A DNA stretch of 64,000 nt from a virus (IMGVR_UViG_3300033067_001757:1-64000); one strand, 5' to 3'. Counted from the first letter of the stretch, positions 16,207 to 30,173 are shown. The notes: generated by a model from the sequence alone, not told the origin. Numbers and translations: made by a program.

Positions 16207-16224
16207 ATAAAGTTAGAGAGGTAG

Positions 16225-16310
16225 CGGAGGTAACAGGAGTTCAACCTGTACGACTTTTTAGGGTCCTGGCGATTTTCAAGATCGTGTACCTCTGTCAACT
16301 GGGTACCTCC
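16225..16310 (-). tRNA. tRNA-Ser(TGA)
   Basis: Acceptor GGAGGTA/TACCTCC, G73, anticodon arm CGAT-CT TGA AA-ATCG, long variable arm; atypical D arm. Confidence 0.8.
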
Positions 16311-16316
16311 GTATAA

Positions 16317-16817
16317 TTATTTATCTTTATTTGCCGAATGTGAATGAAGTATAATAAAGGCTACTGAACCTTTAGAAGAAATATTAAATTTTTCCATTAT
16401 CTGTCGATAGGTATGACCTTCTTGACGATATTTAATAATATTATCATGGTCATGTACCTTTATGTAAGAGGTAGCTAACATAGCAGCCTGAAATCTTAAC
16501 TCCTTACTTTTATCCATCATATTATCTTGATGTGTTCCAATTCCAATATTCCAATCATAATTACATAAACTATCGCAATTCAAATGCCTTATCTCCATAT
16601 CTGCTTCAAAAATCTTATCTCCATATTTTTGATATCCAACCAATCTATGGATTGGAATCGCATATGTACTTCCATTCATTCTAATACTAAATTTCCTATA
16701 ACCTCTATTTGTTACAGTTCCTTTAATAATCTTTCCCTTTGGTGAATATGTAACATTTTCAATCACTCTGTAACCTCTATTATAGACAAATAATAATGAT
16801 TCTTTTTGTTTACTCAT
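16317..16817 (-). CDS. HNH homing endonuclease
   Basis: IHRLV ... IRHLNCDSLCN ... NIGIGTHQDN; C-terminal HTH. Confidence 0.88.
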   Translation of the reverse strand: MSKQKESLLFVYNRGYRVIENVTYSPKGKIIKGTVTNRGYRKFSIRMNGSTYAIPIHRLVGYQKYGDKIFEADMEIRHLNCDSLCNYDWNIGIGTHQDNMMDKSKELRFQAAMLATSYIKVHDHDNIIKYRQEGHTYRQIMEKFNISSKGSVAFIILHSHSANKDK

Positions 16818-16898
16818 TTAGTTCTTTATTAGTACATATATAAATATGTACCAATGCGGTTCAAAACGATTCGAACCAGAACTTTTTTATAGAACTTG

Positions 16899-16986
16899 CG
16901 GAGAACAGAGTAATCGAAACTCACCCAACTGAATGGGTTCTCGTTTAGCAAACGAGCGGGGATACCACTTCCCTCCTTTACTCTCC
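16899..16986 (-). tRNA. tRNA-Ser(GCT), probable 8/4 fold
   Basis: CTCGT-TT GCT AA-ACGAG, long variable arm, G73, acceptor GGAGAGTA/TGTTCTCC, T stem GAGT/ACTC. Confidence 0.85.
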
Positions 16987-16992
16987 AAATTG

Positions 16993-17076
16993 TAACCCAG
17001 GTAGTATTCGAAACTACTCACCCAAATGGGATGTGATTTACAGTCACACGCACCTCTCCTACTGTGCCGCTGAATT
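16993..17076 (-). tRNA. tRNA-Tyr(GTA)
   Basis: TGTGA-CT GTA AA-TCACA, long variable arm, TTCGAAT T loop. Confidence 0.88.
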
Positions 17077-17082
17077 ATACTG

Positions 17083-17169
17083 TAGCGGTAACCGGCTTCG
17101 AACCGGTACGGACATTGCTGTCCAAGAGTGTTTAAGACTCTCATGTGCTTCCAATTTCATCATACCGCT
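17083..17169 (-). tRNA. tRNA-Leu(TAA)
   Basis: AGCGGTA/TACCGCT, AGAGT-CT TAA AC-ACTCT, long variable arm, GGTTCGAAGCC. Confidence 0.92.
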
Positions 17170-17174
17170 ATTAG

Positions 17175-17251
17175 TAGCCCGAGTCGGAGTCGAACCGACA
17201 GACGATCAATACATCCTAAGTGTATCCGCTTTCCCGTTTGCGTACCAGGCC
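17175..17251 (-). tRNA. tRNA-Leu(TAG), short variable arm
   Basis: ATACA-CT TAG GA-TGTAT, GTCGGTTCGACTCCGAC. Confidence 0.9.
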
Positions 17252-17253
17252 AT

Positions 17254-17288
17254 AAAAACAAAAAACCCTCACCGGTTAAATGAGGGCT
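17254..17288 (-). terminator. attenuator terminator A
   Basis: AGCCCTCA-TTTAACCGG-TGAGGGTT then TTTTGTTTTT, ending 2 nt before tRNA-Leu. Confidence 0.85.
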
Positions 17289-17322
17289 AAAAAAAAAAAT
17301 ATCTCTTAGTTTAGTACATACC

Positions 17323-17391
17323 TCATCCCCAATTATCGTCCAGATAACTTAACGAACTCAAGGAGAGATATAGATTAATATTGTGTTTCAT
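17323..17391 (-). CDS. leader peptide A, MKHNINLYLSLSSLSYLDDNWG (Leu/Ser/Tyr sensor)
   Basis: ATG..TGA, 22 aa, 11 consecutive L/S/Y codons; lies between promoter and terminator. Confidence 0.85.
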   Translation of the reverse strand: MKHNINLYLSLSSLSYLDDNWG

Positions 17392-17395
17392 AATG

Positions 17396-17427
17396 CGAAG
17401 GTAGCTATAATTATTGAGACTACCAAA
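17396..17427 (-). promoter_or_regulatory. Bacteroidota sigma-A type promoter of tRNA array A
   Basis: TTTG-N20-TACCTTCG, 4 nt before the leader ATG. Confidence 0.7.
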
Positions 17428-17499
17428 TATAAATATACAGAGGTCTACAAAAACGATTAAAATAATTACCATTGTTCATCCCAGTTTTTATTTGCATGT

Positions 17500-17931
17500 T
17501 TGTATAATTTATGTGATAATAAATATTGGAGATGTACAGAAAATATCTATTTTTGTAAAATGAAATTATTTATAATTATAATAATCACTATTCTCGTGTT
17601 GATGGTATTACCCATTATTATCCATGAACAGTATTATGGAGAACCGGTTTCATATGGTCATTATTATCTACAGAAGAACTATAAAGACGCTTCTGCGTTG
17701 TTTACTATATTGACAAAAAAAGATACCGATATATTTCTATGGTGCTGTGATTGTATTTTATTCTATGCAAAAAAACTAAATGTATCATATGAAGAATTGA
17801 ACATATATGTTTTCATCATATGGCAACCATATCTGATAATTTTATTTGGATACTTGTATATATCAGTATTGATTAAAAACATCAAACTTCGACGAAAGTT
17901 GCATCAAACAATTCCAGTAACAAATCCGTAA
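17500..17931 (+). CDS. membrane protein (true start may be the later Met, MKLFIII)
   Basis: Two TM segments, SYEELNIYVF motif. Confidence 0.6.
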   Translation: MYNLCDNKYWRCTENIYFCKMKLFIIIIITILVLMVLPIIIHEQYYGEPVSYGHYYLQKNYKDASALFTILTKKDTDIFLWCCDCILFYAKKLNVSYEELNIYVFIIWQPYLIILFGYLYISVLIKNIKLRRKLHQTIPVTNP

Positions 17932-19288
17932 GATTTTCTCGTATTCTTACAACTGGTTTACCATTTTTCATTTTAACTACAATTTTACCGTCTGCACCAA
18001 CGGTATAAACAGGTTTAGCTACATGTGATCCATGTTTAGCCGACTTGTCATCATCGTCTTCTTTAGATTTAATATTAGAAACAGTATCTACTTTTTTCGA
18101 TACATCTGGTGTAGGAGAAGATCCTGTAGTTGTGACTGATTTATTTTTGTCTGGTTTAGATTGTTTACTGGTAGCTATATCTCCAAAAGAATCTTTTGAT
18201 TTTTTGTGTTTAGTACCTTCTTTACCAGCCATCATATTAGACGAAAGAGTGATAGTGATCTTTTTTCCTTTAGATGAGGTGTCTGGATTTTCAAGATAAG
18301 CAATATGTCTTACGGCCTGATATGGTGTAGCATTATCTTTTTTCATAACATACACAATTTTCTCCATATAATTCATATCTTTTAGATCATCTGATGTCAC
18401 TGTCTTAGAAGCACCTTTTGAAAAATCATATGTATCTGTAATTGTGTATGAACTATCTGCGTTTTTTTGATACGTAAACCTTCCCAATGTAGTTGCTACA
18501 CCGAATGCATCATTTGATGTAAGAGTTTTAAATGCTGTTGTGAGTGTACTTGGTCCGACATTATTTGCATATATATTCGCAACATCTCCACCATAATCTT
18601 TATATTCGGTAGCACCACGATTAACTTTACCTGTACGCTTAATGGCATTATTTATAACATCTGCCATTATTTTCTTCTGAGCCTTACTAAAATCTTTACC
18701 TGATAAGTCTTTAGTCAAATATAACTGTGCAACGTTTGGAAAAGCCTTTCTGATATACGAAGAAACACCGGAAGCTATTTTATCACCTATACCAGAATTA
18801 GCTTTATTTGTAGAATCAAATTCAGCTTTACCGGCTTTGCCAGTACTATCTATAGTTATTTTATTACCCGTGGTTGAAAATACATCTCCATTACTGATGC
18901 GGCAATTAAAAATGGCCAATTTTTTAGCAGCGGTAGCAGCTTTTTTAAAGTCTGTAGGATTAGATTTTTTAGCAATATTCTTCTTTACCGTTATATGAAA
19001 ATCTTTCTTTTTATCAACTTTCTGTTCCATATCCTTGTAAAGAGAATCGATATCCTGTGGACTCATTGAATTAAGCTTGTTACCAAAATTAGTCTTGCTT
19101 ATATTTTCTATGTCCTGTTTGTGTGAATTATCCATCTGAGATAACTTCACTCCTCCTATAGATAAAGAACTTAAAAACAAGCTTAGTCCGGAAAAAATAT
19201 TTAAAAATAATCCTTCCTCAATATTTTCTTCATTTTCCGGTATTTTTAGTAAATCTAATTCTTCAAGTAATTTAGTAAATGTTTGCAT
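17882..19288 (-). CDS. Lys/Ser/Asp-rich protein, possible virion internal protein
   Basis: 468 aa ORF; N-terminal LLEE motif; C-terminal motif shared with 14430-15230. Confidence 0.75.
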   Translation of the reverse strand: MQTFTKLLEELDLLKIPENEENIEEGLFLNIFSGLSLFLSSLSIGGVKLSQMDNSHKQDIENISKTNFGNKLNSMSPQDIDSLYKDMEQKVDKKKDFHITVKKNIAKKSNPTDFKKAATAAKKLAIFNCRISNGDVFSTTGNKITIDSTGKAGKAEFDSTNKANSGIGDKIASGVSSYIRKAFPNVAQLYLTKDLSGKDFSKAQKKIMADVINNAIKRTGKVNRGATEYKDYGGDVANIYANNVGPSTLTTAFKTLTSNDAFGVATTLGRFTYQKNADSSYTITDTYDFSKGASKTVTSDDLKDMNYMEKIVYVMKKDNATPYQAVRHIAYLENPDTSSKGKKITITLSSNMMAGKEGTKHKKSKDSFGDIATSKQSKPDKNKSVTTTGSSPTPDVSKKVDTVSNIKSKEDDDDKSAKHGSHVAKPVYTVGADGKIVVKMKNGKPVVRIRENLTDLLLELFDATFVEV

Positions 19289-19327
19289 ATATAATATAAA
19301 TATAAGAAATATCCCAAATTAATTCGG

Positions 19328-19399
19328 GGTATAAGGTCGGTAACGGTCCGACTTCTTCTCCTTCACAGGGAGACGCTTCACTTTAAAGCTTCAAACACC
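19328..19399 (-). tRNA. tRNA-His(GTG)
   Basis: TCTCC-CT GTG AA-GGAGA, G-1:C73; two T-T mismatches in the acceptor; T loop ACCGTTA. Confidence 0.8.
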
Positions 19400-19409
19400 A
19401 TGTTTCAGA

Positions 19410-20090
19410 TTATTTCCTTTTGAAACGTTGCCAATAACCTTTAGGTGGTTTATCAACGTTTAATTTATGATATCTTCTTCGAACAGTATTCGCTGAAACC
19501 TTATACATCTTTGCAATATTATTTAATGAAAACTCCCATATTAATTTACTCAATTCTTCATCTGAAATGATAAATTTTGGTTCATATATTCGCTTACTCT
19601 TATTATCAACCTTGATCTTTTTATTATTTCGTCCGGCGAAAGTATTAGTTTGTCTGTGGCAGTTAGGGCAAAGAAATCTCAAATTTTCAATTTCACAATT
19701 AGTCCAATCCCCATCTATATGATCAATATCTAAAGTTATATATTCATCTAACCATTTTGACAAAGTACATACACCACACTTATATTCAAAACCTTTCTCC
19801 AGCAAAGCTCGTTTTAATGTTTTATGGTTCACTCTATATTCCTTATTCCTTGTGAGAATATCATCCGCTTGTATCCTTTTTTGATAATTAGGATTTCTTT
19901 TTCCGGCATATACACTTTGTCCTAAAAAATGTGAAACATCTATATCATATTCTTTTATACGATTTCTAATTAATTCATAACTACCACCAGATGCTCTGGC
20001 TCCCAATCTTCTGCAAACATCGGCATATGTTATAGATTCTTTCACAACCGATTCTATAAGTTCTCTTGTATAAGTCCTCTTAGTTGACAT
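19410..20090 (-). CDS. HNH homing endonuclease
   Basis: CGVC ... LDIDHIDGDWTN ... NLRFLCPNCH. Confidence 0.92.
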   Translation of the reverse strand: MSTKRTYTRELIESVVKESITYADVCRRLGARASGGSYELIRNRIKEYDIDVSHFLGQSVYAGKRNPNYQKRIQADDILTRNKEYRVNHKTLKRALLEKGFEYKCGVCTLSKWLDEYITLDIDHIDGDWTNCEIENLRFLCPNCHRQTNTFAGRNNKKIKVDNKSKRIYEPKFIISDEELSKLIWEFSLNNIAKMYKVSANTVRRRYHKLNVDKPPKGYWQRFKRK

Positions 20091-20159
20091 TATTATATTT
20101 ATAATAAATATCAGAGAGGTATAAGCGAAATTTAAAAAGAATGCACTTATACATTATAG

Positions 20160-20230
20160 ATGTCCCGCTTCGAATTGAACGAAGATCACAAGATTCAAAT
20201 TCTTGTATAATACCATTATACCACAAGACA
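20160..20230 (-). tRNA. tRNA-Gln(TTG)
   Basis: TGTCTTG/CGGGACA, CAAGA-AT TTG AA-TCTTG. Confidence 0.85.
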
Positions 20231-20236
20231 ATTTTG

Positions 20237-20308
20237 AGCCCAGTACCGGTCTCAAACCGATCTCTTCTGATTACAGGTCAGTTGCTTCATCAACAAAGCT
20301 TACCAGGC
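20237..20308 (-). tRNA. tRNA-Thr(TGT)
   Basis: GCCTGGT/ACTGGGC with C2-G71; CTGA-CC TGT AA-TCAG (C33). Confidence 0.78.
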
Positions 20309-20314
20309 TAAAAG

Positions 20315-20386
20315 TAGTACCACTTGGAGTCGAACCAAAACCTTCTGTTCTTCAGACAGACGCGCAGACCACTACGCCATAGCACC
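20315..20386 (-). tRNA. tRNA-Phe(GAA)
   Basis: TCTGT-CT GAA GA-ACAGA, GGTTCGACTCC. Confidence 0.9.
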
Positions 20387-20392
20387 ATATAG

Positions 20393-20465
20393 AAGTGGAA
20401 GAGGAACTCGAAGCCTCGCGTACCGGGGTTGCAATCCGGAGCATTACCATCTTTGCTATTCCACT
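20393..20465 (-). tRNA. tRNA-Cys(GCA)
   Basis: AGTGGAA/TTCCACT, U73, CCGGA-TT GCA AC-CCCGG. Confidence 0.87.
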
Positions 20466-20471
20466 ATGTTG

Positions 20472-20542
20472 CAAGGGATACCCGAATCAAACAGGTACCA
20501 ACTGGGTTGGAAGCAGTTGTACTATCATTATACTAATCCCCC
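20472..20542 (-). tRNA. tRNA-Trp(CCA)
   Basis: GGGGGAT/ATCCCTT, G73, ACTGC-TT CCA AC-CCAGT. Confidence 0.82.
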
Positions 20543-20550
20543 GTAAAAAT

Positions 20551-20643
20551 AACACACAAGGCCAACGACTCTCTCGTTGTGGATTCGGTAGAGCTTAGTA
20601 ACCTCATGCTTACATAAGTCGTATGCTCTCACCTTGTATGTCC
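20551..20643 (-). ncRNA. unidentified three-way-junction RNA inside tRNA array B
   Basis: Closing stem ACATACAAGG/CCTTGTGTGT; inner stems AGAGC/GCTCT and CAACGA/TCGTTG. Confidence 0.5.
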
Positions 20644-20646
20644 TCG

Positions 20647-20720
20647 TCGAGATTTAAGGCATCGAACCTTACTGATATCTTGGTCCCAAACCAAGTGACC
20701 CACCTTGAGTCCGAATCTCG
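20647..20720 (-). tRNA. tRNA-Pro(TGG)
   Basis: CGAGATT/AATCTCG, CTTGG-TT TGG GA-CCAAG. Confidence 0.9.
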
Positions 20721-20727
20721 ATATAAT

Positions 20728-20757
20728 AAAAAACCCCGAAACATTTCTGTCGGGGCT
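20728..20757 (-). terminator. attenuator terminator B
   Basis: AGCCCCGA-CAGAAATGTT-TCGGGG then TTTTTT, 7 nt before tRNA-Pro. Confidence 0.85.
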
Positions 20758-20785
20758 ATTAAACTTATGTTAGATTATAGATGTT

Positions 20786-20881
20786 TTACCATCCCATTCC
20801 ATCATACATATGTTTGTCCCCACCGAACGGTTGTGTCGGCCAGAAGGTAAATTGACATGTATGTGTAAATGTGTTGTTCAT
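20786..20881 (-). CDS. leader peptide B, MNNTFTHTCQFTFWPTQPFGGDKHMYDGMGW (Thr/Phe/His/Cys/Gln/Trp/Pro sensor)
   Basis: ATG..TAA, 31 aa, A-rich upstream context, 16 consecutive codons from the seven amino acids of array B. Confidence 0.88.
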   Translation of the reverse strand: MNNTFTHTCQFTFWPTQPFGGDKHMYDGMGW

Positions 20882-20896
20882 TGTTTTGTTTTTTAA

Positions 20897-21105
20897 AAGA
20901 TAAACAGCCGTCAAATCCCGCTGAAGTTATCTATTGTTAAAGTGTAACAGGGATCGCTTCTTTCAGCGTCAGACATACAAGATGTTCTGTTACAAAGAGT
21001 AATCGTGATTCGTGGTACACTTTTAAGTGCCTTCGCTCAAACGTCCTGGACGTACAATTACTAAAATTTAGATAATCACCAATACGTTACCGGTGAGGTT
21101 ATCTG
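20897..21105 (-). ncRNA. unidentified multi-domain structured RNA upstream of leader B
   Basis: Four consecutive stems: AGATAA..TCACC/GGTGA..TTATCT, AGTAATTG/CGATTACT, TGTAACAG/CTGTTACA, AGATAA/TTATCT; no ORF in the track. Confidence 0.45.
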
Positions 21106-21122
21106 TTAATAAATATCAAAGA

Positions 21123-21362
21123 CTATTGTAAAACGGTTATTGCTCTTGCGTACCTACCATAATTATCGTTTACAGAACCGGTTCGGAATGCTATATTCTT
21201 TTCACCGAGTCCAACCTCGTATTCTTTTAAAGACATTGTCAGTTCTTCAAATATCCGTTTCTGTCTCTCAGGATTTAAATACATAAAAACATAATATGTT
21301 TTACAATGATCACACTGTTCTGGACACTTACTATTTCCTTCGATATCACGCTGGCATTTCAT
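21123..21362 (-). CDS. hypothetical Cys-rich protein
   Basis: 79 aa, directly after the promoter at 21372-21403. Confidence 0.55.
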   Translation of the reverse strand: MKCQRDIEGNSKCPEQCDHCKTYYVFMYLNPERQKRIFEELTMSLKEYEVGLGEKNIAFRTGSVNDNYGRYARAITVLQ

Positions 21363-21371
21363 AATATGAAG

Positions 21372-21403
21372 CGAAGGTAGTATTTAATTAGAGAACTTCC
21401 AAA
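21372..21403 (-). promoter_or_regulatory. Bacteroidota sigma-A type promoter
   Basis: TTTG-N20-TACCTTCG. Confidence 0.65.
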
Positions 21404-21404
21404 T

Positions 21405-21695
21405 TTATTTTCCATTCATCTTGCCCAGATATACACCGAGACTATCCTTCAATTGCAGACTTTGTACCGTCAGGTCATTAATCTGGAGACTGTAGATCAG
21501 TACAGAATCAATCTTCTGCGCTTTACCGGCATCGATCATCAGCTTCGTCTTATCAATAATTTGGAATGCGTTTTGAGTCAGAGCCAGGGAATAATAATTT
21601 ACCTGCTGCAGGTTGTATGCACCTTGTGTTGAGGATAGTACTGAGCATGACCCAAGGATGAATGGGATTACGAGTAATGTGATGAGTTTTTTCAT
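21405..21695 (-). CDS. lipoprotein
   Basis: MKK + hydrophobic stretch + LGSC lipobox. Confidence 0.75.
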   Translation of the reverse strand: MKKLITLLVIPFILGSCSVLSSTQGAYNLQQVNYYSLALTQNAFQIIDKTKLMIDAGKAQKIDSVLIYSLQINDLTVQSLQLKDSLGVYLGKMNGK

Positions 21696-21786
21696 AGATG
21701 AAAATTTGTATTAATATTTGTATATATAAATATCAAGGAGTCTATATTCTGGCAGCAGAATGGGATTTGTGTCGGAGATTAGTATG

Positions 21787-21859
21787 TGGAAAACAGTTGA
21801 TTCGAACAACATCTCCCGGTTTGCAAAACCAGTGCTTTTGCCAATTAAGCTATGCTCCC
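21787..21859 (-). tRNA. tRNA-Ala(TGC)
   Basis: G3:U70, CTGGT-TT TGC AA-ACCGG; bulged acceptor with a 4-bp T stem. Confidence 0.85.
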
Positions 21860-21865
21860 ATTATG

Positions 21866-21938
21866 TTGAAGAAGTGAATTATGCTATCACAACCTCTGAA
21901 GTATCAGTTCAGCGCTCTGACTGTTGAGCTATTCTTCA
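21866..21938 (-). tRNA. tRNA-Ile(GAT)
   Basis: TGAAGAA/TTCTTCA, CTGAA-CT GAT AC-TTCAG; atypical T loop. Confidence 0.85.
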
Positions 21939-21945
21939 ATGTATG

Positions 21946-22018
21946 TTGTCCCTACCGGTTATGATCCGGTTACCTAATGATTATGAGTCATTTGCTCTAC
22001 CGATTGAGCTAAGGGACT
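21946..22018 (-). tRNA. tRNA(CAT), Ile2 (lysidine) or elongator Met
   Basis: AATGA-CT CAT AA-TCATT; lacks the three initiator G-C pairs. Confidence 0.85.
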
Positions 22019-22068
22019 GTAAAACAGAATAAAGAGTTGCGCATCGTTGAGAGGTTCTTACTCTAATG

Positions 22069-22142
22069 CGGACTATACCGGTAACAATCCGGTCATCTCT
22101 CCCGTGACAGGGGAGCGTCTTCATCGTGCAGACTCATAGTCC
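22069..22142 (-). tRNA. tRNA-Asp(GTC)
   Basis: GGACTAT/ATAGTCC, G73, CTCCC-CT GTC AC-GGGAG. Confidence 0.88.
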
Positions 22143-22147
22143 TTATG

Positions 22148-22220
22148 TATCCCCAATGGAATTCGAATCCATATCATCTCATAGAAAGTGAGATATCCTA
22201 AGCCATTAGACGATGGGGAC
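22148..22220 (-). tRNA. tRNA-Glu(TTC)
   Basis: GTCCCCA/TGGGGAT, TCTCA-CT TTC TA-TGAGA. Confidence 0.88.
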
Positions 22221-22289
22221 TGGTTGGCATCCTAAACTCCCGTGCAAGGGATAAACCTGGCCATTTAGGTTTTGTTCTACCGGCAACCA
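22221..22289 (-). ncRNA. unidentified long hairpin abutting tRNA-Glu
   Basis: Nested stems TGGTTG/CAACCA, CCTAAA/TTTAGG, TCCC/GGGA. Confidence 0.35.
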
Positions 22290-22306
22290 CAAGTGTCTGG
22301 CACCAG

Positions 22307-22519
22307 CTACTTCCATTGTGTCTTTCTGTTATGCTTCCAGGACTTGTATTGTCTCACCTGGTACATCATAAGCTCTTTACGTTTCCATCTCCTTACTGGG
22401 CTGCTACGGTAGTAATTTACACCTTCGTCCCAGTATCTGTCCATGAACTTATCATTAGTCACAATCTTATATTCCTTTCTGCAGGTTGTGTGACTACTGA
22501 TACTTCTGTGTGGTTTCAT
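22307..22519 (-). CDS. small basic protein within the tRNA array
   Basis: 70 aa, Arg/Lys/Trp-rich, ends KSWKHNRKTQWK. Confidence 0.7.
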   Translation of the reverse strand: MKPHRSISSHTTCRKEYKIVTNDKFMDRYWDEGVNYYRSSPVRRWKRKELMMYQVRQYKSWKHNRKTQWK

Positions 22520-22537
22520 TGTTGTAGGTTTTAGTAC

Positions 22538-22564
22538 CTACAAGAAATCGTATGTTTTTTTCAT
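22538..22564 (-). CDS. 8-aa upstream ORF MKKTYDFL
   Basis: Its TAG lies in the 5' arm of hairpin TTGTAGGT-ACTAAA-ACCTACAA just upstream of the next ATG. Confidence 0.5.
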   Translation of the reverse strand: MKKTYDFL

Positions 22565-22627
22565 AACGTAAATAATGTTTTACATGGTATACCCATCTGT
22601 GTAAAAGATATTTTACAAACATATCCA

Positions 22628-22897
22628 TTATTCTAAATCTGGATACTCACTATAAAAACTAAGCTCATACATATTTTCACCGGTTTTTATCTGTCTGTAA
22701 TATAAATAATCAGGTGATATACCTTTATAATTAACCCTGTTAGCATAAACAGAATCCTTTACGAGACCTGTTTCGGTTATGTTCATATTTTCCAGATACT
22801 GTTTTTCATTACGAAATTTTTCAATCACATCAGGATTAGCACTCTTTAAAAAACTCGCATTGGCCAACGTTGAATCAATCTTTTCAAGTCTTGTCAT
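22628..22897 (-). CDS. hypothetical protein; N-terminus resembles the ValRS C-terminal tRNA-binding coiled coil
   Basis: LEKIDSTLANASFLKSANPDVIEKFRNE resembles the ValRS motif KLxNxxFxxxAPxxVVxKE. Confidence 0.5.
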   Translation of the reverse strand: MTRLEKIDSTLANASFLKSANPDVIEKFRNEKQYLENMNITETGLVKDSVYANRVNYKGISPDYLYYRQIKTGENMYELSFYSEYPDLE

Positions 22898-22980
22898 TGT
22901 GAAATAAATTTAAAAGAAGCTACCAGAGCTACGTGTTTCTTTTTGTTCCCGTTCCTGGTCTTCGCTAAAGCTTCTCTAAT

Positions 22981-23028
22981 TGGAGCCGAGGGGCAGTGTG
23001 CCCACTGTGCATTCCCTTTCAACTCGGC
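22981..23028 (-). ncRNA. tRNA-like minihelix ending in encoded CCA
   Basis: GCCGAG ... CTCGGC T CCA, 48 nt, no anticodon arm. Confidence 0.4.
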
Positions 23029-23608: not shown

Positions 23609-23899
23609 TTGGTACTTTCAAAAAATAAATACTGCTATATGAAAGTTCTAAAGGAGTATATTACTTATGAAGGTAAAAACTTTGGTGAATCAATTAACGA
23701 TGGTATTGCACAAGTTGAGATTATTAAATTAAGTGAAAAGCTTTCAAGTTTTACCAAAGATATATTTAATTCAAAAACTGGTTTTATTGATATAAAATCA
23801 AATGGTGCAATTGAAATTGAAGACTTTCCCGATGATCTGCAAAATTCTATCATAGACTATCTTAAAATTTCCAAGGATAATCATTATACGAAACCTTGA
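23609..23899 (+). CDS. IS passenger, hypothetical protein
   Basis: ORF inside the TIRs; probable start at MKVLKE. Confidence 0.55.
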   Translation: MVLSKNKYCYMKVLKEYITYEGKNFGESINDGIAQVEIIKLSEKLSSFTKDIFNSKTGFIDIKSNGAIEIEDFPDDLQNSIIDYLKISKDNHYTKP

Positions 23900-24037
23900 G
23901 CCTTATATCTTTATCATATAAAATTCTAACAATCTCCCACAAAGACGTTTTTTGTTCTTTTGTTAAGTGACAAGTAACTTCAATGGGTATACCGATAACT
24001 TTGGTTACTTTGAATTCTTCGGTGTTTATCATGAATA

Positions 24038-24238
24038 CTAATTAAGTAAATTTACTCCACCGTTACGGTAAATAGAAGAATCAAATTCTTTAATACAATC
24101 TCTTATCATATTAATTTGAGCATAATCGGATGTTTCCATTGAAATAATCTGATTAATTAAAGAACAACACTTTTTTGATTTTGATTCCAAACTTTGCTTT
24201 ACCGAGACTATATCCTTTTTTACATTCTCTAATTCCAT
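24038..24238 (-). CDS. IS passenger, hypothetical protein
   Basis: 66 aa, preceded by the ATATTTATA motif. Confidence 0.5.
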   Translation of the reverse strand: MELENVKKDIVSVKQSLESKSKKCCSLINQIISMETSDYAQINMIRDCIKEFDSSIYRNGGVNLLN

Positions 24239-24294
24239 ATACTTTGTTTTAGTATATATAAATATATAGAGGTAGTGATTATCAAATTAAAATA

Positions 24295-24492
24295 TCAGAA
24301 AGCGTATATGTAAATAATTATAATCATACCGATTATAGTTGCAAAATTCATCCACACCATTATAGACTTCTCTTTCATCTTTTCTTTACCACTAATAGCA
24401 TTTCTGGTATTTTTTAAAGCTTCTTTCAAAGAGGTCATTCCGTAGAATATCAGACTTATTACTATTAATAAACCGATGAGAATATATGGCAT
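24295..24492 (-). CDS. IS passenger, two-TM small membrane protein (paralog of 10962-11153)
   Basis: Shared GKEK-containing loop between two TM helices. Confidence 0.6.
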   Translation of the reverse strand: MPYILIGLLIVISLIFYGMTSLKEALKNTRNAISGKEKMKEKSIMVWMNFATIIGMIIIIYIYAF

Positions 24493-24549
24493 GGTAAAGA
24501 ATTGGATAATTAAAATTGACGGTACTGATATTTATATGAAAGTACAAAT

Positions 24550-24750
24550 ATGATAACCTCTTTTGATGAATTAGAATCCCAAGGCGCTAAATTCTATTAT
24601 GACCCGCATCAAGATAAGGAAATTGACCCACCTCACTATTATGCAATTGATAATAAATGTTGGACACTTATTAATATAGATGAAGATGGAACTCCGGAAT
24701 ACATGGGAATACAATTTGAATTGATCGCGTATCCAGAATTATTTACTTAG
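24550..24750 (+). CDS. IS passenger, small acidic protein
   Basis: 66 aa, preceded by GATATTTATAT. Confidence 0.55.
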   Translation: MITSFDELESQGAKFYYDPHQDKEIDPPHYYAIDNKCWTLINIDEDGTPEYMGIQFELIAYPELFT

Positions 24751-24973
24751 TTTTTTCAACTTCACTCATTGAGTATTCGACAAATTCGTTTTTAGTATTT
24801 TTAAATACATGTTTGTATACTTTTTGAAATTGCTTTTTGGATTGGTCTACATAAATTAAAATTTCACCTGTTTCTTTAAGTTTAAATTTATCACCTGCTT
24901 TAATAACAGTCTCTGTAGATTTTACAATGTTTACTTTCTTGCCAGCCCTAATACGTATTTTAAATGTTTAAGA

Positions 24974-25714
24974 TTAATCCTTAACGCAACGAACAGAAAA
25001 GCCCCAGGTCTTTTGAATCTCGTCCGCGTAGATGGTGCCACCGCCATAGTTTATGTAGTGGTACCAGGCGTAGTTAAGCAAGGTATACTCCGTAGTACTC
25101 CACCAGAAACCTGTGATACCAGCACCGTAGAAAGATTCGATGTAATAATCATTGAAGTGATGGTAGCCACCCGGAAGCGCTGTGAATCCGCTGCTGTTAG
25201 TAGCATCGGCGTTAGGGGCATACCATAAACCGGTCCCAGCTTCTATGGTTCCGGTTGATTTCATCTTGCCACCCGCTACTGCATAGCCGCCTAAATAAGT
25301 AGATAATGTTGTCCATTCTGCCTCACTTGGTACATGCCAACCTTCAGGGGCTAGTCCCCTTGGATCATGTACAGCATACCAGTTGTATAACTTGCCATAA
25401 ACAGCACCCGTGGCAGAATCGTTATTGTACCAGCACCATGCACCGGTAGTTAAGGAAGCCCATTTGTGACGGTCTTTTACCTGTGGTATCTTGTCCCCAT
25501 TTCTGTAACGGGTTACGTCAAGGTTCTTTTTCATCCAAACTTGAGTACCTATTCTAACAGTGTTACCAGCAAGAACTTTATTATCGTTAAGTACATCTTG
25601 GCTTATACTTTCACTTGTAATACCTGAAGTTTGAACGGTGCTGTTTTCTTTTTTACAGGAGATTGATAGTGATATCAGCAAAGCTGAAATACTTATTGTG
25701 ATTATTGTTTTCAT
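24974..25714 (-). CDS. FISUMP (Fibrobacter succinogenes major paralogous) domain lipoprotein
   Basis: SISC lipobox; IGTQVWMKKNL, YGKLYNWYA, PEGWHVPS..EW, SGFTALPGG, GFSVRCVKD. Confidence 0.92.
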   Translation of the reverse strand: MKTIITISISALLISLSISCKKENSTVQTSGITSESISQDVLNDNKVLAGNTVRIGTQVWMKKNLDVTRYRNGDKIPQVKDRHKWASLTTGAWCWYNNDSATGAVYGKLYNWYAVHDPRGLAPEGWHVPSEAEWTTLSTYLGGYAVAGGKMKSTGTIEAGTGLWYAPNADATNSSGFTALPGGYHHFNDYYIESFYGAGITGFWWSTTEYTLLNYAWYHYINYGGGTIYADEIQKTWGFSVRCVKD

Positions 25715-25744
25715 TGTAGGTGATATTTATATAAAATAAAGTTT

Positions 25745-25948
25745 ATGATAAAAATAAAGTTTAATGTAGACAAGAAAAAAGAGGGGGATTTAAATGAGAA
25801 AGTTACAATGTCCGTAGAAACTAATGAAATAGAAAATTCTTCTGATACGGCATTGATTGAAAGTATAATACAATGGTCAGCAGAACACCTTGAATATTTA
25901 CAGAAAAAAATAAGTCAATGGAATGATGTTTTAAATCAACCTCGTTAA
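25745..25948 (+). CDS. IS passenger, hypothetical protein
   Basis: 67 aa, preceded by GATATTTATATA. Confidence 0.55.
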   Translation: MIKIKFNVDKKKEGDLNEKVTMSVETNEIENSSDTALIESIIQWSAEHLEYLQKKISQWNDVLNQPR

Positions 25949-26247
25949 ATTGTAGGCAGCATAATACCATTTTCAGACAAGAAATCTGTAAATTTTTTGA
26001 TATGGAAAAAGCCACCACTGACATATAAAAAGTAAACATCCAAGTCGTCTTTGGAAAATCTATCCGAGGTTACTTTTTCATCTTTCAAATTCAATAAAGC
26101 GAGTTCATCAATGTACTTTGCGAACAAATCACTTCTGGACGGAGCTATTATTAGTCTTGCAATCACTAAATTTTTGTTTACACCAACTCTAGTTGAAACC
26201 AGACTTCTTAATTTTTCTTTTATTGATTTTGCTTGTTCTAAGTTCAT
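25945..26247 (-). CDS. IS passenger, hypothetical protein
   Basis: 100 aa, convergent 4-nt overlap. Confidence 0.55.
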   Translation of the reverse strand: MNLEQAKSIKEKLRSLVSTRVGVNKNLVIARLIIAPSRSDLFAKYIDELALLNLKDEKVTSDRFSKDDLDVYFLYVSGGFFHIKKFTDFLSENGIMLPTI

Positions 26248-26359
26248 TTTAAAGGATTTAGTAGCACAAGATACAAAAATCTATTAGACATACTTTAACA
26301 ATATTAGGTAGTACTTTGAACAAAACATGTCTATCTTTGTGTAACAAATAAAGAGATAT

Positions 26360-27286
26360 ATGTTCAACTCATTTAAGAATCTTACAGAAGTTATACTCCA
26401 CTTTTCTACTGATAAAGTTTGCAGGGAATTCTTAGAGACCAAGAGATGGAACGGTACTCCGACCTGTCCTCATTGTGGTTGTGATAAGTGGTATAAGTTG
26501 AATGATGGTAAAACATACAAGTGCGGTAACAAAGAGTGTTACAAGAAATATACCGTTACGGTAGGAACGATCTATGAGAATACAAACGTTCCTCTTACTA
26601 AATGGTTTGCTGCTGTTTATATAATCACCGCTCATAAGAAAGGAATAAGCAGTATCCAGTTGTCTAAAGACATTGGTGTTACTCAAAAGACTGCCTGGTA
26701 TATGAATCATAGAATCAGACAGATGGTTGGAGAAAGGCATCCAGAAGCATTAGAGAACACTGTAGAAGTGGATGAAACCTATGTAGGTGGGAAGATGAAG
26801 AACAAACACAAGAAGGTTAGAGCGGAAGCACATGCTAACAATATAAGCCATACAGATAACAAGACAGGTGTAATGGGTTTCTTGGAAAGAGGAGCAGGTG
26901 TACGGTTAAATGTTATTGATAAAACCAAGACATTTAAAGAAATGGTTAAGGGTAATATTGCTTTAGAAGCTATTGTAATTACAGATAGCCTAAATGCTTA
27001 TACCGGCCTTGCTAAGGAGTTTAAAGGTCATGAGGTGGTTAACCATAGCGAAGATGAATATGTACGTGGTGAGTTCCATACAAACACTATAGAGGGCTTC
27101 TTTTCATTCCTAAAGAGAAGTATCTACGGTTGTTACCACAATGTAAGTCCTAAGCATTTACAGAGATATTGTAATGAGAATAGCTACCGGTACAATACAA
27201 GAGATTTGAAAGATGGTCAGAGATTTGAGATAACTTTGTCTAACATTGAAGGAAGACTTCCATATAAAACTCTAATCGGTAAATAA
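26360..27286 (+). CDS. IS1595 (ISXO2-like) DDE transposase
   Basis: CPHCG..C Zn ribbon, KKGISSIQL, VEVDETYVGG, ITD, HTNTIEGFF, HLQRYCNE..YRYN. Confidence 0.96.
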   Translation: MFNSFKNLTEVILHFSTDKVCREFLETKRWNGTPTCPHCGCDKWYKLNDGKTYKCGNKECYKKYTVTVGTIYENTNVPLTKWFAAVYIITAHKKGISSIQLSKDIGVTQKTAWYMNHRIRQMVGERHPEALENTVEVDETYVGGKMKNKHKKVRAEAHANNISHTDNKTGVMGFLERGAGVRLNVIDKTKTFKEMVKGNIALEAIVITDSLNAYTGLAKEFKGHEVVNHSEDEYVRGEFHTNTIEGFFSFLKRSIYGCYHNVSPKHLQRYCNENSYRYNTRDLKDGQRFEITLSNIEGRLPYKTLIGK

Positions 27287-27460
27287 TGGCAAAGGCAAAG
27301 AAGGCAACAAAGCCTAAAAAGATAAGACAGGAGAACTATGAAACTAAGTTAAAGGTGAATGCATCTTTTGAAGATGTGATAGGATGGAGTGTAGAAGGTA
27401 ATCCTAAGCCAAAGACTAAGCCATTGAAGAAGTAGACTGTAGATATGTTTAAGAGATCAT

Positions 27461-27486
27461 TCCCGCTTTATGAGCGGGTTTTTTTG
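27461..27486 (+). terminator. intrinsic terminator after the transposase operon
   Basis: CCCGCT-TTATG-AGCGGG followed by a T run. Confidence 0.75.
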
Positions 27487-27531
27487 TTTCCTGCAGTGTA
27501 GATGTTGTGAATTTAGTTATATTTTAGATTC

Positions 27532-28020
27532 ATGAATACTAAACGAATAATTGCTATTAGAAAATTAGACAATGTTTTAAAAATTCTATCAGATTCAACC
27601 GAAGCCGAAATTCAAAATAATGTTCCGATTGCCATACTTGACGTTTTTGAAATTAGTGAATTTTATAAAAACGCTCATAAAACTGAATTGAAAAATCATG
27701 AATTTAATCTTATTATAGATAAGTTATTAAAGGATGACTATATATTCAAGGAACAAATTGATAAATCACAACCACCACGATTTGGTATTAACTATATTGG
27801 TTATATATTTAACTCTGAAGGTGGTTATGAACAAAAAATGATTAATGACGACGACGAAAATACGCGGATGGATAAGATAGAAGAGAATCAAAAATTCCAT
27901 AGGCGTGCCCTGACTTGGCTAACATCTCTCGTCGCTGTCGGGACGTTAATAGCTGCGATTTATTATTCAGTAGAACTCTTGAAATATTTTCATGTTTTAC
28001 CTGATCCTTTTCATTGCTGA
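27532..28020 (+). CDS. IS passenger, protein with a C-terminal TM helix
   Basis: 162 aa, possible winged-helix N-part, hydrophobic C-terminus. Confidence 0.65.
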   Translation: MNTKRIIAIRKLDNVLKILSDSTEAEIQNNVPIAILDVFEISEFYKNAHKTELKNHEFNLIIDKLLKDDYIFKEQIDKSQPPRFGINYIGYIFNSEGGYEQKMINDDDENTRMDKIEENQKFHRRALTWLTSLVAVGTLIAAIYYSVELLKYFHVLPDPFHC

Positions 28021-28343
28021 GTTCTATATCTCTTTTCTTAAATAAATTTATAAGCCATTTCATAGTATATTGATTTTTAAAAAGTTGCGAATTCTTGTCC
28101 TAAGCTGTATATAGTTGCCTTTACAATTGAGTGTAATATCTAATCTCTTAACTGTAAACTTCCCATTATTGAATCTTGTTTTATTAAATTCAAAATTCGG
28201 ATTACTGGTACACCTACTAACATGATATGCAAACTGTTGATGTTTATCATAATTTATTATCTCCAAACAATACTTACATCTCTTTTCCATTTATTGCTGC
28301 TTTATAATAAATATCAGCAATGAGTAAAAATGAAAATATTATG

Positions 28344-28415
28344 AGCGATAATGCAGTAACAATCTGCATACCCCGATTTGGAAGACCGGTATGTATTCAT
28401 CAACACCTTTATCGC
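28344..28415 (-). tRNA. tRNA-Gly(TCC)
   Basis: GCGATAA/TTATCGC, U73, CCGGT-CT TCC AA-ATCGG. Confidence 0.87.
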
Positions 28416-28516
28416 ATATACATTTGGCTAACTTTAAAATCTTATACTCAGCCAAAACTATCTTCCAACGTTACCCGGACCAGACGACCGACTGCCTGGA
28501 TCCGGGGTTTCGTTTG

Positions 28517-28593
28517 TGGTTGCGAAGATCGGGTACGATCCGATAGTCTCAGGGATATGAGCCCCGTGTGTTCTCCATTTACACCACCTCACA
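28517..28593 (-). tRNA. tRNA-Met(CAT), initiator-like
   Basis: CGGGG-CT CAT AT-CCCTG (three G-C pairs), T1-A72, encoded CCA. Confidence 0.85.
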
Positions 28594-29134
28594 ATTTTAT
28601 TAAACCATTATCAAACTCCCAATGACAATTAGGACATAATCCTATTAAATTATCTATATGATTGATTATAGAAATCAGTGTATAATCATCAAAATCAGAT
28701 ACAGCTTTAATGTGTGCTATTTCAAAATGCTTATCATACCCACATAAATAACAACATTTAGATTTATCACTGCGATAGTAAGTCGCTTCGGCATGACTAC
28801 GTATTGACGATCGAGCACTCTGCCAATTTTTCTGTGTTTCAAATATGTTACCTTTTGTTCTATATATTAAAAGATCGGCTCTCTCTTTTTTAGGTGGCTT
28901 TTCTTTTACTTTTATAACTCTCACTCTCTTTTTATTATTAAATATTGCTGCACAAGATCTTGAACAGAATTTTTTTACTTTGGTTTCGGCGGGTTTTCTA
29001 TTATCTGGAATCATAATCATTTCATTACAATTCAAACAATAATTAGGATTCGCATAATATTCATCTACCCTTTTCTTTCTAATAATCGGTGCCATTTTCT
29101 GACCACCCATTGCGTGTGCGTGTTTCGGTAACAT
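28589..29134 (-). CDS. HNH homing endonuclease
   Basis: FCSRSCA, CYLCG..EIAHIK..NHIDNLIGLCPNCHWEFD. Confidence 0.92.
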   Translation of the reverse strand: MLPKHAHAMGGQKMAPIIRKKRVDEYYANPNYCLNCNEMIMIPDNRKPAETKVKKFCSRSCAAIFNNKKRVRVIKVKEKPPKKERADLLIYRTKGNIFETQKNWQSARSSIRSHAEATYYRSDKSKCCYLCGYDKHFEIAHIKAVSDFDDYTLISIINHIDNLIGLCPNCHWEFDNGLIKL

Positions 29135-29244
29135 ATAGTTCTTCTATATAAATATCAGATACCTACAATTTCGAATACATTATCCGCAATTATTTTCAAA
29201 GAACTCTAAACTACCTCTCCAGTCCACCCCTGGAATATTTAAAG

Positions 29245-29320
29245 AGGGAAATCTCAGATTCGAACTGAGGATCTTTTGATTAACAGTCAAATGCATTGAG
29301 CCGGACTATGCTAACTTCCC
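29245..29320 (-). tRNA. tRNA-Asn(GTT)
   Basis: GGGAAGT/ATTTCCC, TTTGA-CT GTT AA-TCAAA, CTCAGTTCGAATCTGAG. Confidence 0.9.
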
Positions 29321-29321
29321 T

Positions 29322-29520
29322 TGCGGCTAAGCTTTTAATTACGAGTCTGGCTGTTAAGCCCTCTACGAAGGAGACCATCTACTGATGCTGCTCGACCCCT
29401 ATACGACAGATTTAAACAGGATTGTTAATCCTTTCGGACTGAAAACCGTTTCCCTTTTTAACTACACGCAGAAGAGTAACTGACCTATCTTTGATCACGA
29501 TTCGTGAACTGATAATAATT
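29322..29520 (-). ncRNA. unidentified ~200 nt non-coding spacer, candidate structured RNA
   Basis: No ORF in the track, higher GC than the flanking genes, AGTCC-GAAA-GGATT tetraloop hairpin, CGAG/CTCG stem. Confidence 0.35.
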
Positions 29521-29523
29521 GTG

Positions 29524-29594
29524 AACAGCAATCCGGATTTGAACCGAAACTAAGAAGTTAGAACCATCTTGTGCTTCCATTACACCATAGCTGC
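29524..29594 (-). tRNA. tRNA-Arg(TCT)
   Basis: D stem GTGT/GCAC fixes the register AGATG-GT TCT AA-CTTCT; A20 present. Confidence 0.8.
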
Positions 29595-29604
29595 TTATAC
29601 TTAG

Positions 29605-29676
29605 AAGGCCCTGGGAGAGTCGAACTCACCGTCTCGACGTTCGTAGCGCCGGATCCTTCCATTGAACGAAAGGCCC
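29605..29676 (-). tRNA. tRNA-Arg(ACG)
   Basis: GGGCCTT/AGGGCCT, CGGCG-CT ACG AA-CGTCG, A20. Confidence 0.9.
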
Positions 29677-29680
29677 TTGT

Positions 29681-29728
29681 TTAATCAAGAGTCCTTCGTC
29701 TTCGGTATATAAGCACTGTGTTGTTCAT
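29681..29728 (-). CDS. internal mini leader peptide MNNTVLIYRRRRTLD (Arg sensor)
   Basis: ATG..TAA fills the Val-Arg spacer; CGA AGA CGA AGG; stop 4 nt before tRNA-Arg. Confidence 0.72.
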   Translation of the reverse strand: MNNTVLIYRRRRTLD

Positions 29729-29741
29729 AATATTTTTGTTG

Positions 29742-29813
29742 TAGTCTCCAGGGATTCGAACCCTACCTCTAACTTTGTAAGAATTAGTTTCTGCCCGAGT
29801 GAATTATGAGACT
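29742..29813 (-). tRNA. tRNA-Val(TAC)
   Basis: AGTCTC/GAGACT, TAATT-CT TAC AA-AGTTA, AGGGTTCGAATCCCT; acceptor/T junction 1 nt short. Confidence 0.82.
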
Positions 29814-29821
29814 GTATTTCG

Positions 29822-29896
29822 TGACCCCGGTGAGGCTTGAACTCACAACCTTTCGGTTAAAAGCCGAAAGCTCTTATCCATTTGAGCTACAAGGTC
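29822..29896 (-). tRNA. tRNA-Lys(TTT)
   Basis: GACCTTG/CGGGGTC, TTCGG-CT TTT AA-CCGAA. Confidence 0.92.
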
Positions 29897-29897
29897 T

Positions 29898-29943
29898 AAA
29901 AAGAAAAAACCCGGTAAGCTCATTTTGGTTTGGCCTCCGGGTT
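29898..29943 (-). terminator. attenuator terminator C
   Basis: AACCCGGAGGC ... GCTTACCGGGTT then TTTTCTTTTT, directly before tRNA-Lys. Confidence 0.85.
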
Positions 29944-29965
29944 CGTATTAGTATCGTGTTATTAG

Positions 29966-30085
29966 TTACTTGCAATCATCTTCTTCACACAATATTTCAG
30001 AACCACAGAGGCGCTTAATGACATTATCATTGCCGCGTTCCGCTTCCATTGATCTTCCAACTATTATGTCTAAACTGTGTTGCAC
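29966..30085 (-). CDS. leader peptide C, (M)QHSLDIIVGRSMEAERGNDNVIKRLCGSEILCEEDDCK (Asp/Ile/Val/Gly/Arg/Met/Glu/Ala/Asn/Lys sensor)
   Basis: GTG..TAA, 39 aa, A-rich upstream; 19 of 20 consecutive codons from the ten amino acids of array C. Confidence 0.8.
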   Translation of the reverse strand: MQHSLDIIVGRSMEAERGNDNVIKRLCGSEILCEEDDCK

Positions 30086-30125
30086 TGAATTTGAATTGTA
30101 TTTGTTTGTTATTAATAAATATACG

Positions 30126-30157
30126 CAAAGCTACAAAAAGATTAGATAACTTCCAAA
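30126..30157 (-). promoter_or_regulatory. Bacteroidota sigma-A type promoter of tRNA array C
   Basis: TTTG-N20-TAGCTTTG, followed by an ATATTTAT motif. Confidence 0.75.
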
Positions 30158-30173
30158 TTTATTTTTAGAGACC

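Follow-up and report, generated by a model that had tools for sequence, protein, structure and literature searches.

Three arrays of tRNA genes in a phage genome are each preceded by a small open reading frame (ORF) in which a run of codons lists the amino acids of the tRNAs encoded behind it. We analyzed the sequence IMGVR_UViG_3300033067_001757:1-64000 (referred to as the window), which is the first 64 kb of a phage contig of 187,243 bp with 36.7% G+C. We think it probable that the three elements are ribosome-mediated leader-peptide transcription attenuators and that the regulated products are the tRNA arrays themselves, as an earlier note on the window had proposed. This reading is drawn from the sequence, that is, from the ORFs, their codon match to the arrays, the adjoining terminators, the lack of room for a second promoter, an antiterminator in the third leader, conservation in relatives, and recurrence of the arrangement elsewhere.

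Leader codons and tRNA isotypes

We accepted 24 tRNA genes. They form three arrays, lie within 16.2-29.9 kb, and are without exception on the minus strand. ARAGORN at default settings called 17 tRNA genes, relaxed settings added Ser-GCU, His, Thr, Asp, and Gly, and Rfam added Ile-GAU (21866-21938). Infernal aligned 16226-16310 as a tRNA with a long variable arm and the loop CUUGAAA, corresponding to Ser-UGA, with a score under the family cut-off. In all, 7 of the 24 genes are non-canonical and were detected at relaxed thresholds only. The amino-acid sets of the three arrays comprise 3, 7, and 10 amino acids, covering all 20 with zero overlap. The earlier note had given these isotypes and this partition, and both were confirmed by the combination of ARAGORN, Rfam, and Infernal. 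A further candidate, Ile-AAU at 123.5 kb (relaxed ARAGORN), was doubtful and was not accepted.

The arrays and leaders have the following positions.

Array A: 16226-17251, minus strand; Leu-UAG, Leu-UAA, Tyr, Ser-GCU, an HNH endonuclease-like ORF (16817-16317), Ser-UGA
Array B: 19326-20720, minus strand; Pro, Trp, Cys, Phe, Thr, Gln, an HNH ORF (20090-19410), His
Array C, proximal block: 28343-29896, minus strand; Lys, Val, an Arg mini-ORF (29728-29681), Arg-ACG, Arg-UCU, Asn, an HNH ORF (29134-28589), Met-CAU, Gly
Array C, distal block: 21788-22220, minus strand; Glu, Asp, CAU, Ile-GAU, Ala
Leader ORF A: 17323-17391, minus strand; 22 codons, MKHNIN-LYLSLSSLSYL-DDNWG-stop, with the run at 17373-17341
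Leader ORF B: 20786-20881, minus strand; 31 codons from ATG, with the run TFTHTCQFTFWPTQPF at 20872-20825
Leader ORF C: 29966-30085, minus strand; 39 codons from GTG or 27 from ATG at 30049, with the run at 30070-30011
Core of leader C: 30049-30011, minus strand; MEAERGNDNVIKR, 13 codons from the internal ATG

The codon runs in the leaders match the arrays behind them. Over the three leaders, 46 of the 47 run codons belong to the amino-acid set of the leader's own array, and both this count and the positions of the leader ORFs agree with the earlier note. The 11-codon Leu/Tyr/Ser run of leader A is the longest in the genome (six frames, ~374,000 positions in 187 kb; the runner-up has 9 codons). 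The 16-codon Pro/Trp/Cys/Phe/Thr/Gln/His run of leader B, which includes all seven residues, is likewise the longest of its composition (six frames; runner-up, 11). For array C, two 20-codon segments genome-wide had at least 19 in-set residues together with all ten array-C residues, and one of these is leader C. Its core, MEAERGNDNVIKR, is the sole all-in-set 13-codon segment genome-wide with all ten. When each leader was scored against each array (a 3x3 comparison of log-odds segment scores), the leaders scored 21.2, 27.9, and 14.1 bits with their own arrays and no more than 5.9 bits off the diagonal. The match is at the level of the amino acid (isotype).

The match between leader and array recurred in other phages. 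We collected an independent set of IMG/VR records via a PolB profile and, for each array with at least two tRNAs, scored the upstream 300 nt; the window arrays A, B, and C were defined by hand and were scored apart from these. Co-variation of leader codons with array content in other phages had been set beforehand, in the earlier note, as a test that could refute the proposal, and the match reappeared in three jumbo phages, G006, G007, and G009 (285, 262, and 517 kb), in which PolB is 26-33% identical to that of the window phage. Matching upstream ORFs in these phages include LRLKLLRKwLRR ahead of an Arg/Leu/Lys array, HQHQPS..SRPS..QPRHSQ ahead of Ser, Gln, Ser, Pro, His, and Arg, QRiQQHPPCPRRnPRR ahead of Gln, Gln, Arg, Pro, Tyr, Cys, His, His, and Pro, and EErEE ahead of three Glu genes. 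The only foreign residues of a 51-residue leader ahead of a 13-tRNA array are Met, Trp, Cys, and one Ser, and the first three of these are the isotypes of the next array, located 1.2 kb downstream. When the window was left out, own-array scores summed over 23 arrays gave p=1e-4 against permutations, with p=0.62 for the reverse-complement control, and shuffling confined to single genomes gave p=5e-4.

A leader/array match by chance is effectively refuted by these comparisons. Chance would be favored by the way in which the earlier note set the limits of the runs, once these had been seen, and by the size of set C, which makes up ~45% of six-frame residues. Against chance, the runs are genome-wide extremes, and the match was reproduced in independent phages by a permutation test with a clean reverse-complement control.

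Terminators, antiterminators, and the predicted switch

Each of the three arrays adjoins a terminator, and two of the three leaders follow a shared promoter-like motif. The relevant features are listed below.

Terminator A: 17253-17288, minus strand; stem 17288-17264 plus U-tract, 1-2 nt before tRNA-Leu
Terminator B: 20727-20757, minus strand; AGCCCCGA / UCGGGGU plus U-tract, 6 nt before tRNA-Pro; pair probability 0.86
Terminator C: 29897-29944, minus strand; long interrupted stem plus U-tract, 1 nt before tRNA-Lys; pair probability 0.97
Promoter-like motif, copy 1: 17429-17453, minus strand; TTTTTGTAG-N6-GTATATTTAT, 38 nt before the ATG of leader A
Promoter-like motif, copy 2: 30115-30139, minus strand; 30 nt before the GTG of leader C
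Candidate antiterminator strand A: 17320-17332, minus strand; includes the TGA stop; partner at 17286-17272
Candidate region 2 of leader B: 20817-20828, minus strand; GUUCGGUGGGGA, a near-copy of the terminator 3' arm
Antiterminator strand C: 29999-30013, minus strand; pairs with 29944-29932 in 12-13 bp with one bulge

The arrays appear to be reachable only via read-through of the terminators. A G+C-rich hairpin with a U-tract finishes 1-7 nt ahead of the first tRNA in three of three arrays, in line with the earlier note, which had placed each terminator within about 7 nt. This distance leaves no space for a promoter between the U-tract and the first tRNA, and transcription would therefore have to come through the hairpin. 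A consensus terminator scan listed terminator A alone of the three.

The 19-base promoter-like motif is present in exactly two copies in 187 kb, ahead of leaders A and C; leader B has, by eye, at most a weak variant. Copy 1 is mostly kept in L091 and copy 2 is present with one change in L088, two relatives described below. Leader A needs its own promoter because an ORF on the opposite strand lies between it and the upstream gene. A sigma-70 promoter scan was at background (73 matches compared to 65 +/- 7).

An alternative view of this layout is that the arrays have transcription of their own, that each ORF and terminator constitute a separate mini-gene or the tail of an upstream unit, and that the peptide or its mRNA serves as, for example, a decoy or a translation test with some other output. 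We consider this improbable. It would fit the other phages in that their terminators are followed by a gap of 36-51 nt with a repeated TTCTTTGA...TATAAAT-like stretch, a possible promoter, and in that a terminator adjoining a tRNA array without a leader exists (L002). However, the gap of 1-7 nt in the window fits no promoter, the codon match and the antiterminators would be left purposeless, and the linkage of leader, terminator, and array is kept in L088 and L091. In G006, the 50-nt gaps between terminator and tRNA (L094:4276-4330 and L094:6083-6135) repeat a GTTCTTTGA...TATAAAT-like stretch. This stretch might act as a promoter or as a signal for processing, and it bears on independent transcription.

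Under the attenuation reading, transcription would start at a promoter ~30-40 nt upstream of each leader ORF, and a ribosome would translate the leader as RNA polymerase nears the hairpin and U-tract adjoining the first tRNA. If all the aminoacyl-tRNAs of the run, from host or phage, were plentiful, then the ribosome would pass the run and move over or past the antiterminator strand, the terminator would form, and the array would be silent. If any tRNA of the run were scarce, then the ribosome would stall in the run, the free strand would pair with the terminator 5' arm, and polymerase would enter the array, with RNase P freeing the first tRNA a few nucleotides past the U-tract. The outcome would be negative feedback that holds decoding capacity separately for 3, 7, and 10 amino acids. 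In this scheme, leader translation, termination at the hairpins, stall-dependent read-through, and the cause of tRNA depletion are what we infer, and for the last we can only speculate about host shut-off, codon mismatch, or defense nucleases (of the kinds in PMC10264068 and PMC11555353); the anticodon nucleases and starvation put forward in the earlier note are likewise speculative triggers.

The predicted antiterminator of leader C is stronger than the competing terminator. We folded transcripts ending before the terminator 3' arm while masking a 30-nt ribosome footprint codon by codon. Antiterminator C had a predicted duplex energy of -21.2 kcal/mol, compared to -7.9 +/- 1.9 for shuffled sequences (0 of 1000 as good) and to -17.7 for the weaker terminator duplex, and two further shuffle tests gave p=0.0005 and 0.000. 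With a ribosome stalled in the run of leader C, the antiterminator pairing probability was 1.00. The antiterminator was predicted to form by default and for stalls at codons 1-20, and to be disrupted only under a ribosome at codons 21-33.

The geometry of leader A plausibly reproduces trp logic, with the stop codon inside the antiterminator strand. The antiterminator A duplex was predicted at -11.6 kcal/mol, compared to -11.9 for terminator A, and the pairing probability of the 5' arm dropped from 0.88 while the ribosome occupied codons 5-15 to 0.47 when it was at the stop. In leader B, region 2 has two potential partners, 20839-20834 and the terminator 5' arm (-10.7 kcal/mol).

Complementarity between the segment following the run and the terminator 5' arm was found across leaders. 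For eight leader/terminator pairs, the combined significance was p=1.5e-7 (Fisher). Five of the eight were individually significant, and in seven of the eight the antiterminator strand starts between -5 and +12 nt from the end of the run.

Several observations weigh against attenuation as described, and a first group of them concerns the switch. Antiterminator A was borderline when compared to shuffles (p=0.05-0.19), and the alternative pairing in leader B was no better than shuffles (p=0.52, 0.74, and 0.65). The default state of leader C is 'on', with the antiterminator forming in untranslated RNA, unlike trp. The stop codons of leaders B and C are 30 and 22 nt upstream of the terminator, respectively. 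These two leaders run 12-14 codons past the codon run, so that a ribosome at the stop leaves the antiterminator unmasked, and they are therefore not strict copies of trp. When full transcripts were folded at equilibrium under ribosome masks, the states could not be told apart and terminators B and C prevailed in most ribosome positions; the switch would therefore have to be kinetic.

Other observations of this kind concern the leaders and how widespread they are. The start codons are ambiguous (GTG or an internal ATG for leader C, TTG or ATG for leader B). The choice of synonymous codons in the runs is not enriched for those that the phage anticodons read (strictly decodable, 41 of 47 compared to 37.5 expected; not significant). 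The distal half of array C is separated from the rest by 6.1 kb that includes plus-strand genes. Leaders are clear in ~6 of the 23 independent arrays, all of these with at least three tRNAs, and small arrays, in this set and in other records, are without a leader. We found no leader layout in Xanthomonas phage XacN1, which has 56 tRNAs.

Taken together, the modeled support for a terminator/antiterminator switch is uneven, being strong for C and borderline for A, whereas for B it is no better than chance. The earlier note had described a complementary strand just after each run, and this is firm for leader C, present at borderline significance for leader A, and nominal, at the level of shuffles, for leader B. 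Of the attenuation layout that it had drawn, the array-matched ORF and the adjoining terminator stand and are preserved in relatives, and the antiterminator is at chance level for B and marginal for A.

There are two other interpretations of the same elements. In one, the same sensor would act post-transcriptionally, by affecting folding, access of RNase P or RNase E, or stability of the precursor, and the hairpin would serve in processing or stability instead of being a regulated terminator. This interpretation would accommodate the contact between the hairpins and the first tRNA's RNase P site, the want of a convincing antiterminator in leader B, and the formation of hairpins B and C in most ribosome states at equilibrium. 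We nevertheless find it quite unlikely, given the canonical U-tract on all three hairpins, the 5'-arm complementarity that is significant for C and in five of eight pairs, as controlled termination predicts, and the distance of 36-51 nt between hairpin and tRNA in the other phages, which is beyond a direct effect on RNase P.

In the other interpretation, the logic would be inverted: smooth translation of the leader would cause read-through, as a feed-forward check on decoding, and stalling would cause termination. The ability of antiterminators B and C to re-form after the ribosome reaches the last codons or the stop is in its favor. However, a ribosome stalled in the run leaves antiterminators A and C free and paired (0.88 and 1.00), movement past the run breaks them, and a phage would gain nothing by making tRNAs only when they are already plentiful. 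We regard inverted logic as very unlikely.

Relatives and the history of the arrays

The phage is T4-like. The closest cultured matches of PolB (family B DNA polymerase) were in T4-like cyanophages (29-35% identity), and PolB was 50-59% identical to that of many uncultured contigs. The tRNA genes are clustered and are interrupted by homing-endonuclease-like genes, as in T4-like tRNA clusters. Three HNH-type ORFs lie between tRNA genes (16317-16817, 19410-20090, and 28589-29134, minus strand), assigned by eye from CxxC...HxxxH motifs; the third ends in a stop codon that overlaps with the beginning of tRNA-Met.

Leader, terminator, and array remain together in two relatives. L091, a contig from ENA, is ~92% identical to the window phage. 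Its leader A has a run that is shorter by exactly one codon (AGT), the frame being kept through a 3-nt deletion, and the changes are synonymous after the run and non-synonymous before it. Antiterminator strand A is 100% conserved, and the stem of terminator A is kept with an altered loop. Such changes are in keeping with an ORF that is translated and is coupled to an RNA switch. In array B of L091, Gln is directly before a stretch that aligns with the tRNA-His region of the window, and there is no HNH ORF between them. Another contig, L106, is the same phage (99.9% identity).

Leader C is conserved in L088, a Logan contig in which the neighboring glycosyltransferase-17 is 82% identical and the adjacent protein gene is 90% identical. 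The leader itself is 97-98% identical, with 2 of 120 nt differing: one synonymous change, and TAG in place of TAA. The spacer and terminator C are 94% identical, and the antiterminator and terminator stems read alike. The tRNAs of array C, compared over L088:11515-12405 and 28343-29896 of the window, are merely 56-74% identical, and the isotype order is as in the window: Lys, Val, Arg, Arg, Asn, Met, then Glu. By this comparison, the array C tRNAs appear either to diverge very fast or to have been replaced. A strongly conserved leader next to fast-diverging tRNAs suggests diversifying pressure on the tRNA sequences, combined with regulation that is fixed.

Array C of the window is split by an insertion that is absent from L088. 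The features of the insertion are as follows.

Insertion splitting array C: 22221-28342, both strands; 6.1 kb
ISXO2/IS1595-like transposase ORF: 26360-27286, plus strand
HNH-like ORF: 23586-23038
Lipoprotein-like ORF: 25714-24974

The insertion also carries several small ORFs. In L088, ~1.1 kb with small same-strand ORFs only lies between the Met tRNA and tRNA-Glu. Leader C lists Glu, Asp, Ile, and Ala, and L088 is without the insertion; leader C therefore appears to describe the ancestral, uninterrupted operon. We found no leader or terminator of its own upstream of the distal block. The earlier note had leader C gating Glu, Asp, CAT, Ile, and Ala. The arrangement in L088 bears this out, and in the window the distal block is 6.1 kb away, so that leader C can be securely assigned control of the Glu-Ala block only in the ancestral arrangement, which is uninterrupted, as in L088.

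The spacer between Val and Arg in array C contains a mini-ORF, MNNTVLIYRRRRTLD (29728-29681, minus strand), which begins with the same ATGAACAACACA as leader B. Its Arg codons are CGA AGA CGA AGG, two per each of the two Arg tRNAs behind it. The mini-ORF is kept in L088 (88% identity, RRRR intact) despite a lipoprotein ORF inserted just upstream. It has no U-tract terminator behind it and is followed by a hairpin that overlaps the 5' end of tRNA-Arg; RRRR occurs nine times in the six-frame translation of the genome. Two other spacers have no tRNA call, one of 200 nt in array C (29321-29522, minus strand), whose first half is kept in L088, and one of 100 nt in array B (20543-20645, minus strand). 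These could encode small RNAs or degenerate tRNAs.

When the arrays were compared to GenBank phages by megablast and blastn, no match emerged, and IMG/VR searches with the 468-aa neighboring protein, or with PolB as a single-protein query, found no relatives. Contigs with homologs of the 468-aa protein (P0233 and P0234) had a different context and no arrays. Back-translated patterns of leader B had no match in JGI metagenomes. G005 has five tRNAs directly behind coding genes, and L002 has arrays without leaders.

The closer PolB relatives G001/L084 and L090 (from IMG/VR and ENA; 52-55% identity) have scattered, odd tRNA-like genes and no leaders. In L084:3600-5200 (G001) and L090:17400-19400, where PolB or GT17 (glycosyltransferase-17) is 52-55% identical, there are five or six such genes. 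They have a common 5' half, AGTCAGGTGGCGGAATTGGTAGACG, and a common 3' half, CAGGTTCGAATCCTGTCCTGACTAC, with differing inserts of 60-130 nt between, and may be intron-bearing or otherwise interrupted tRNAs.

Elsewhere in the window, a GroEL-type chaperonin is encoded at 54252-55934 (minus strand; Cpn60_TCP1, E=8.5e-68) and a thymidylate synthase at 8573-9685 (minus strand; E=6.6e-83).

Known attenuators and the purpose of phage tRNAs

The mechanism proposed here is known; the tRNA-gene target, the roster-like leaders with many residues, and the phage setting are new. A search of 15000-32000 with cmscan (E<=1) gave no match to Rfam leader families or the T-box, with only tRNA matches and one chance match. 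In full-text literature searches, no publication turned up that describes tRNA genes, whether of phages or of cells, under the control of a leader peptide or attenuator.

Leader-peptide attenuators control enterobacterial amino-acid operons, including ilvGMEDA (Ile/Leu/Val), thr (Thr/Ile), and those with trpL, hisL, leuL, and pheL; of these, the multivalent ilv and thr leaders are closest to the phage elements, together with the pheST attenuator. The phage elements resemble these in having a short leader rich in regulatory codons, an intrinsic terminator, a candidate mutually exclusive antiterminator, and stalling that would favor read-through. Leader A is also similar to trpL in that its stop codon is inside the antiterminator strand, whereas the stop codon of trpL is near region 2. 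They differ in that the regulated product would be the tRNA itself rather than a biosynthetic enzyme, and thus the sensed molecule and the product would be of the same class. In addition, the runs name 3, 7, or 10 different amino acids, mostly 1-5 times each, whereas those of the amino-acid operons repeat one to three, and the elements are phage-borne, with C 'on' by default.

Two other systems share part of this logic. In Escherichia coli, the pheST attenuator, with the pheM leader peptide, controls phenylalanyl-tRNA synthetase. Like the phage elements, it is a case of leader-peptide attenuation of the translation apparatus and not of amino-acid synthesis, but it is chromosomal, responds to one amino acid, and controls a synthetase protein rather than tRNA genes. 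T-box riboswitches also make a choice between terminator and antiterminator that is set by the state of a specific tRNA. In contrast to the in-frame ORFs with start and stop described here, a T-box works without a ribosome: its specifier codon and T-box bulge make direct contact with uncharged tRNA, each element responds to a single tRNA, and the regulated genes are synthetase or amino-acid genes.

The purpose of phage tRNAs and the timing of their use have been debated for decades. In their titles and abstracts, two studies present phage tRNA clusters as codon supplements or as counter-defense, the debate being between codon compensation and replacement of tRNAs destroyed by defenses (PMC10264068, PMC11555353). 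A near-complete set such as that of the window could replace host tRNAs cleaved by defense nucleases. The T4-type tRNA cluster, as summarized in the abstract of a third study, carries the homing endonuclease SegB (PMC13096335), and the tRNA set of the window is similarly interrupted by HNH homing-endonuclease-like ORFs. The titles and abstracts of the three studies (PMC10264068, PMC11555353, PMC13096335) address what phage tRNAs are for and make no mention of leader-peptide control.

We lean slightly toward the view that large phages of several lineages share a general and undescribed 'roster' leader that couples transcription of a tRNA array to decoding speed in real time. If so, then each array would be self-tuning, turned on when host tRNAs of its isotypes are depleted, for example by anticodon-nuclease defenses, host shut-off, or a mismatch in codon usage, and turned off once decoding is restored by phage tRNAs. 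The elements could be used in synthetic biology as compact, multi-input sensors of tRNA availability. If the attenuation reading is true, then classical attenuation extends from amino-acid and synthetase genes to the tRNA genes themselves, and the leaders are a sequence-readable annotation of the tRNAs in each transcription unit, with leader C recording an operon that an insertion later divided. By naming the isotypes of its array, a leader would show that the phage gauges decoding capacity for those tRNAs and produces them on demand.

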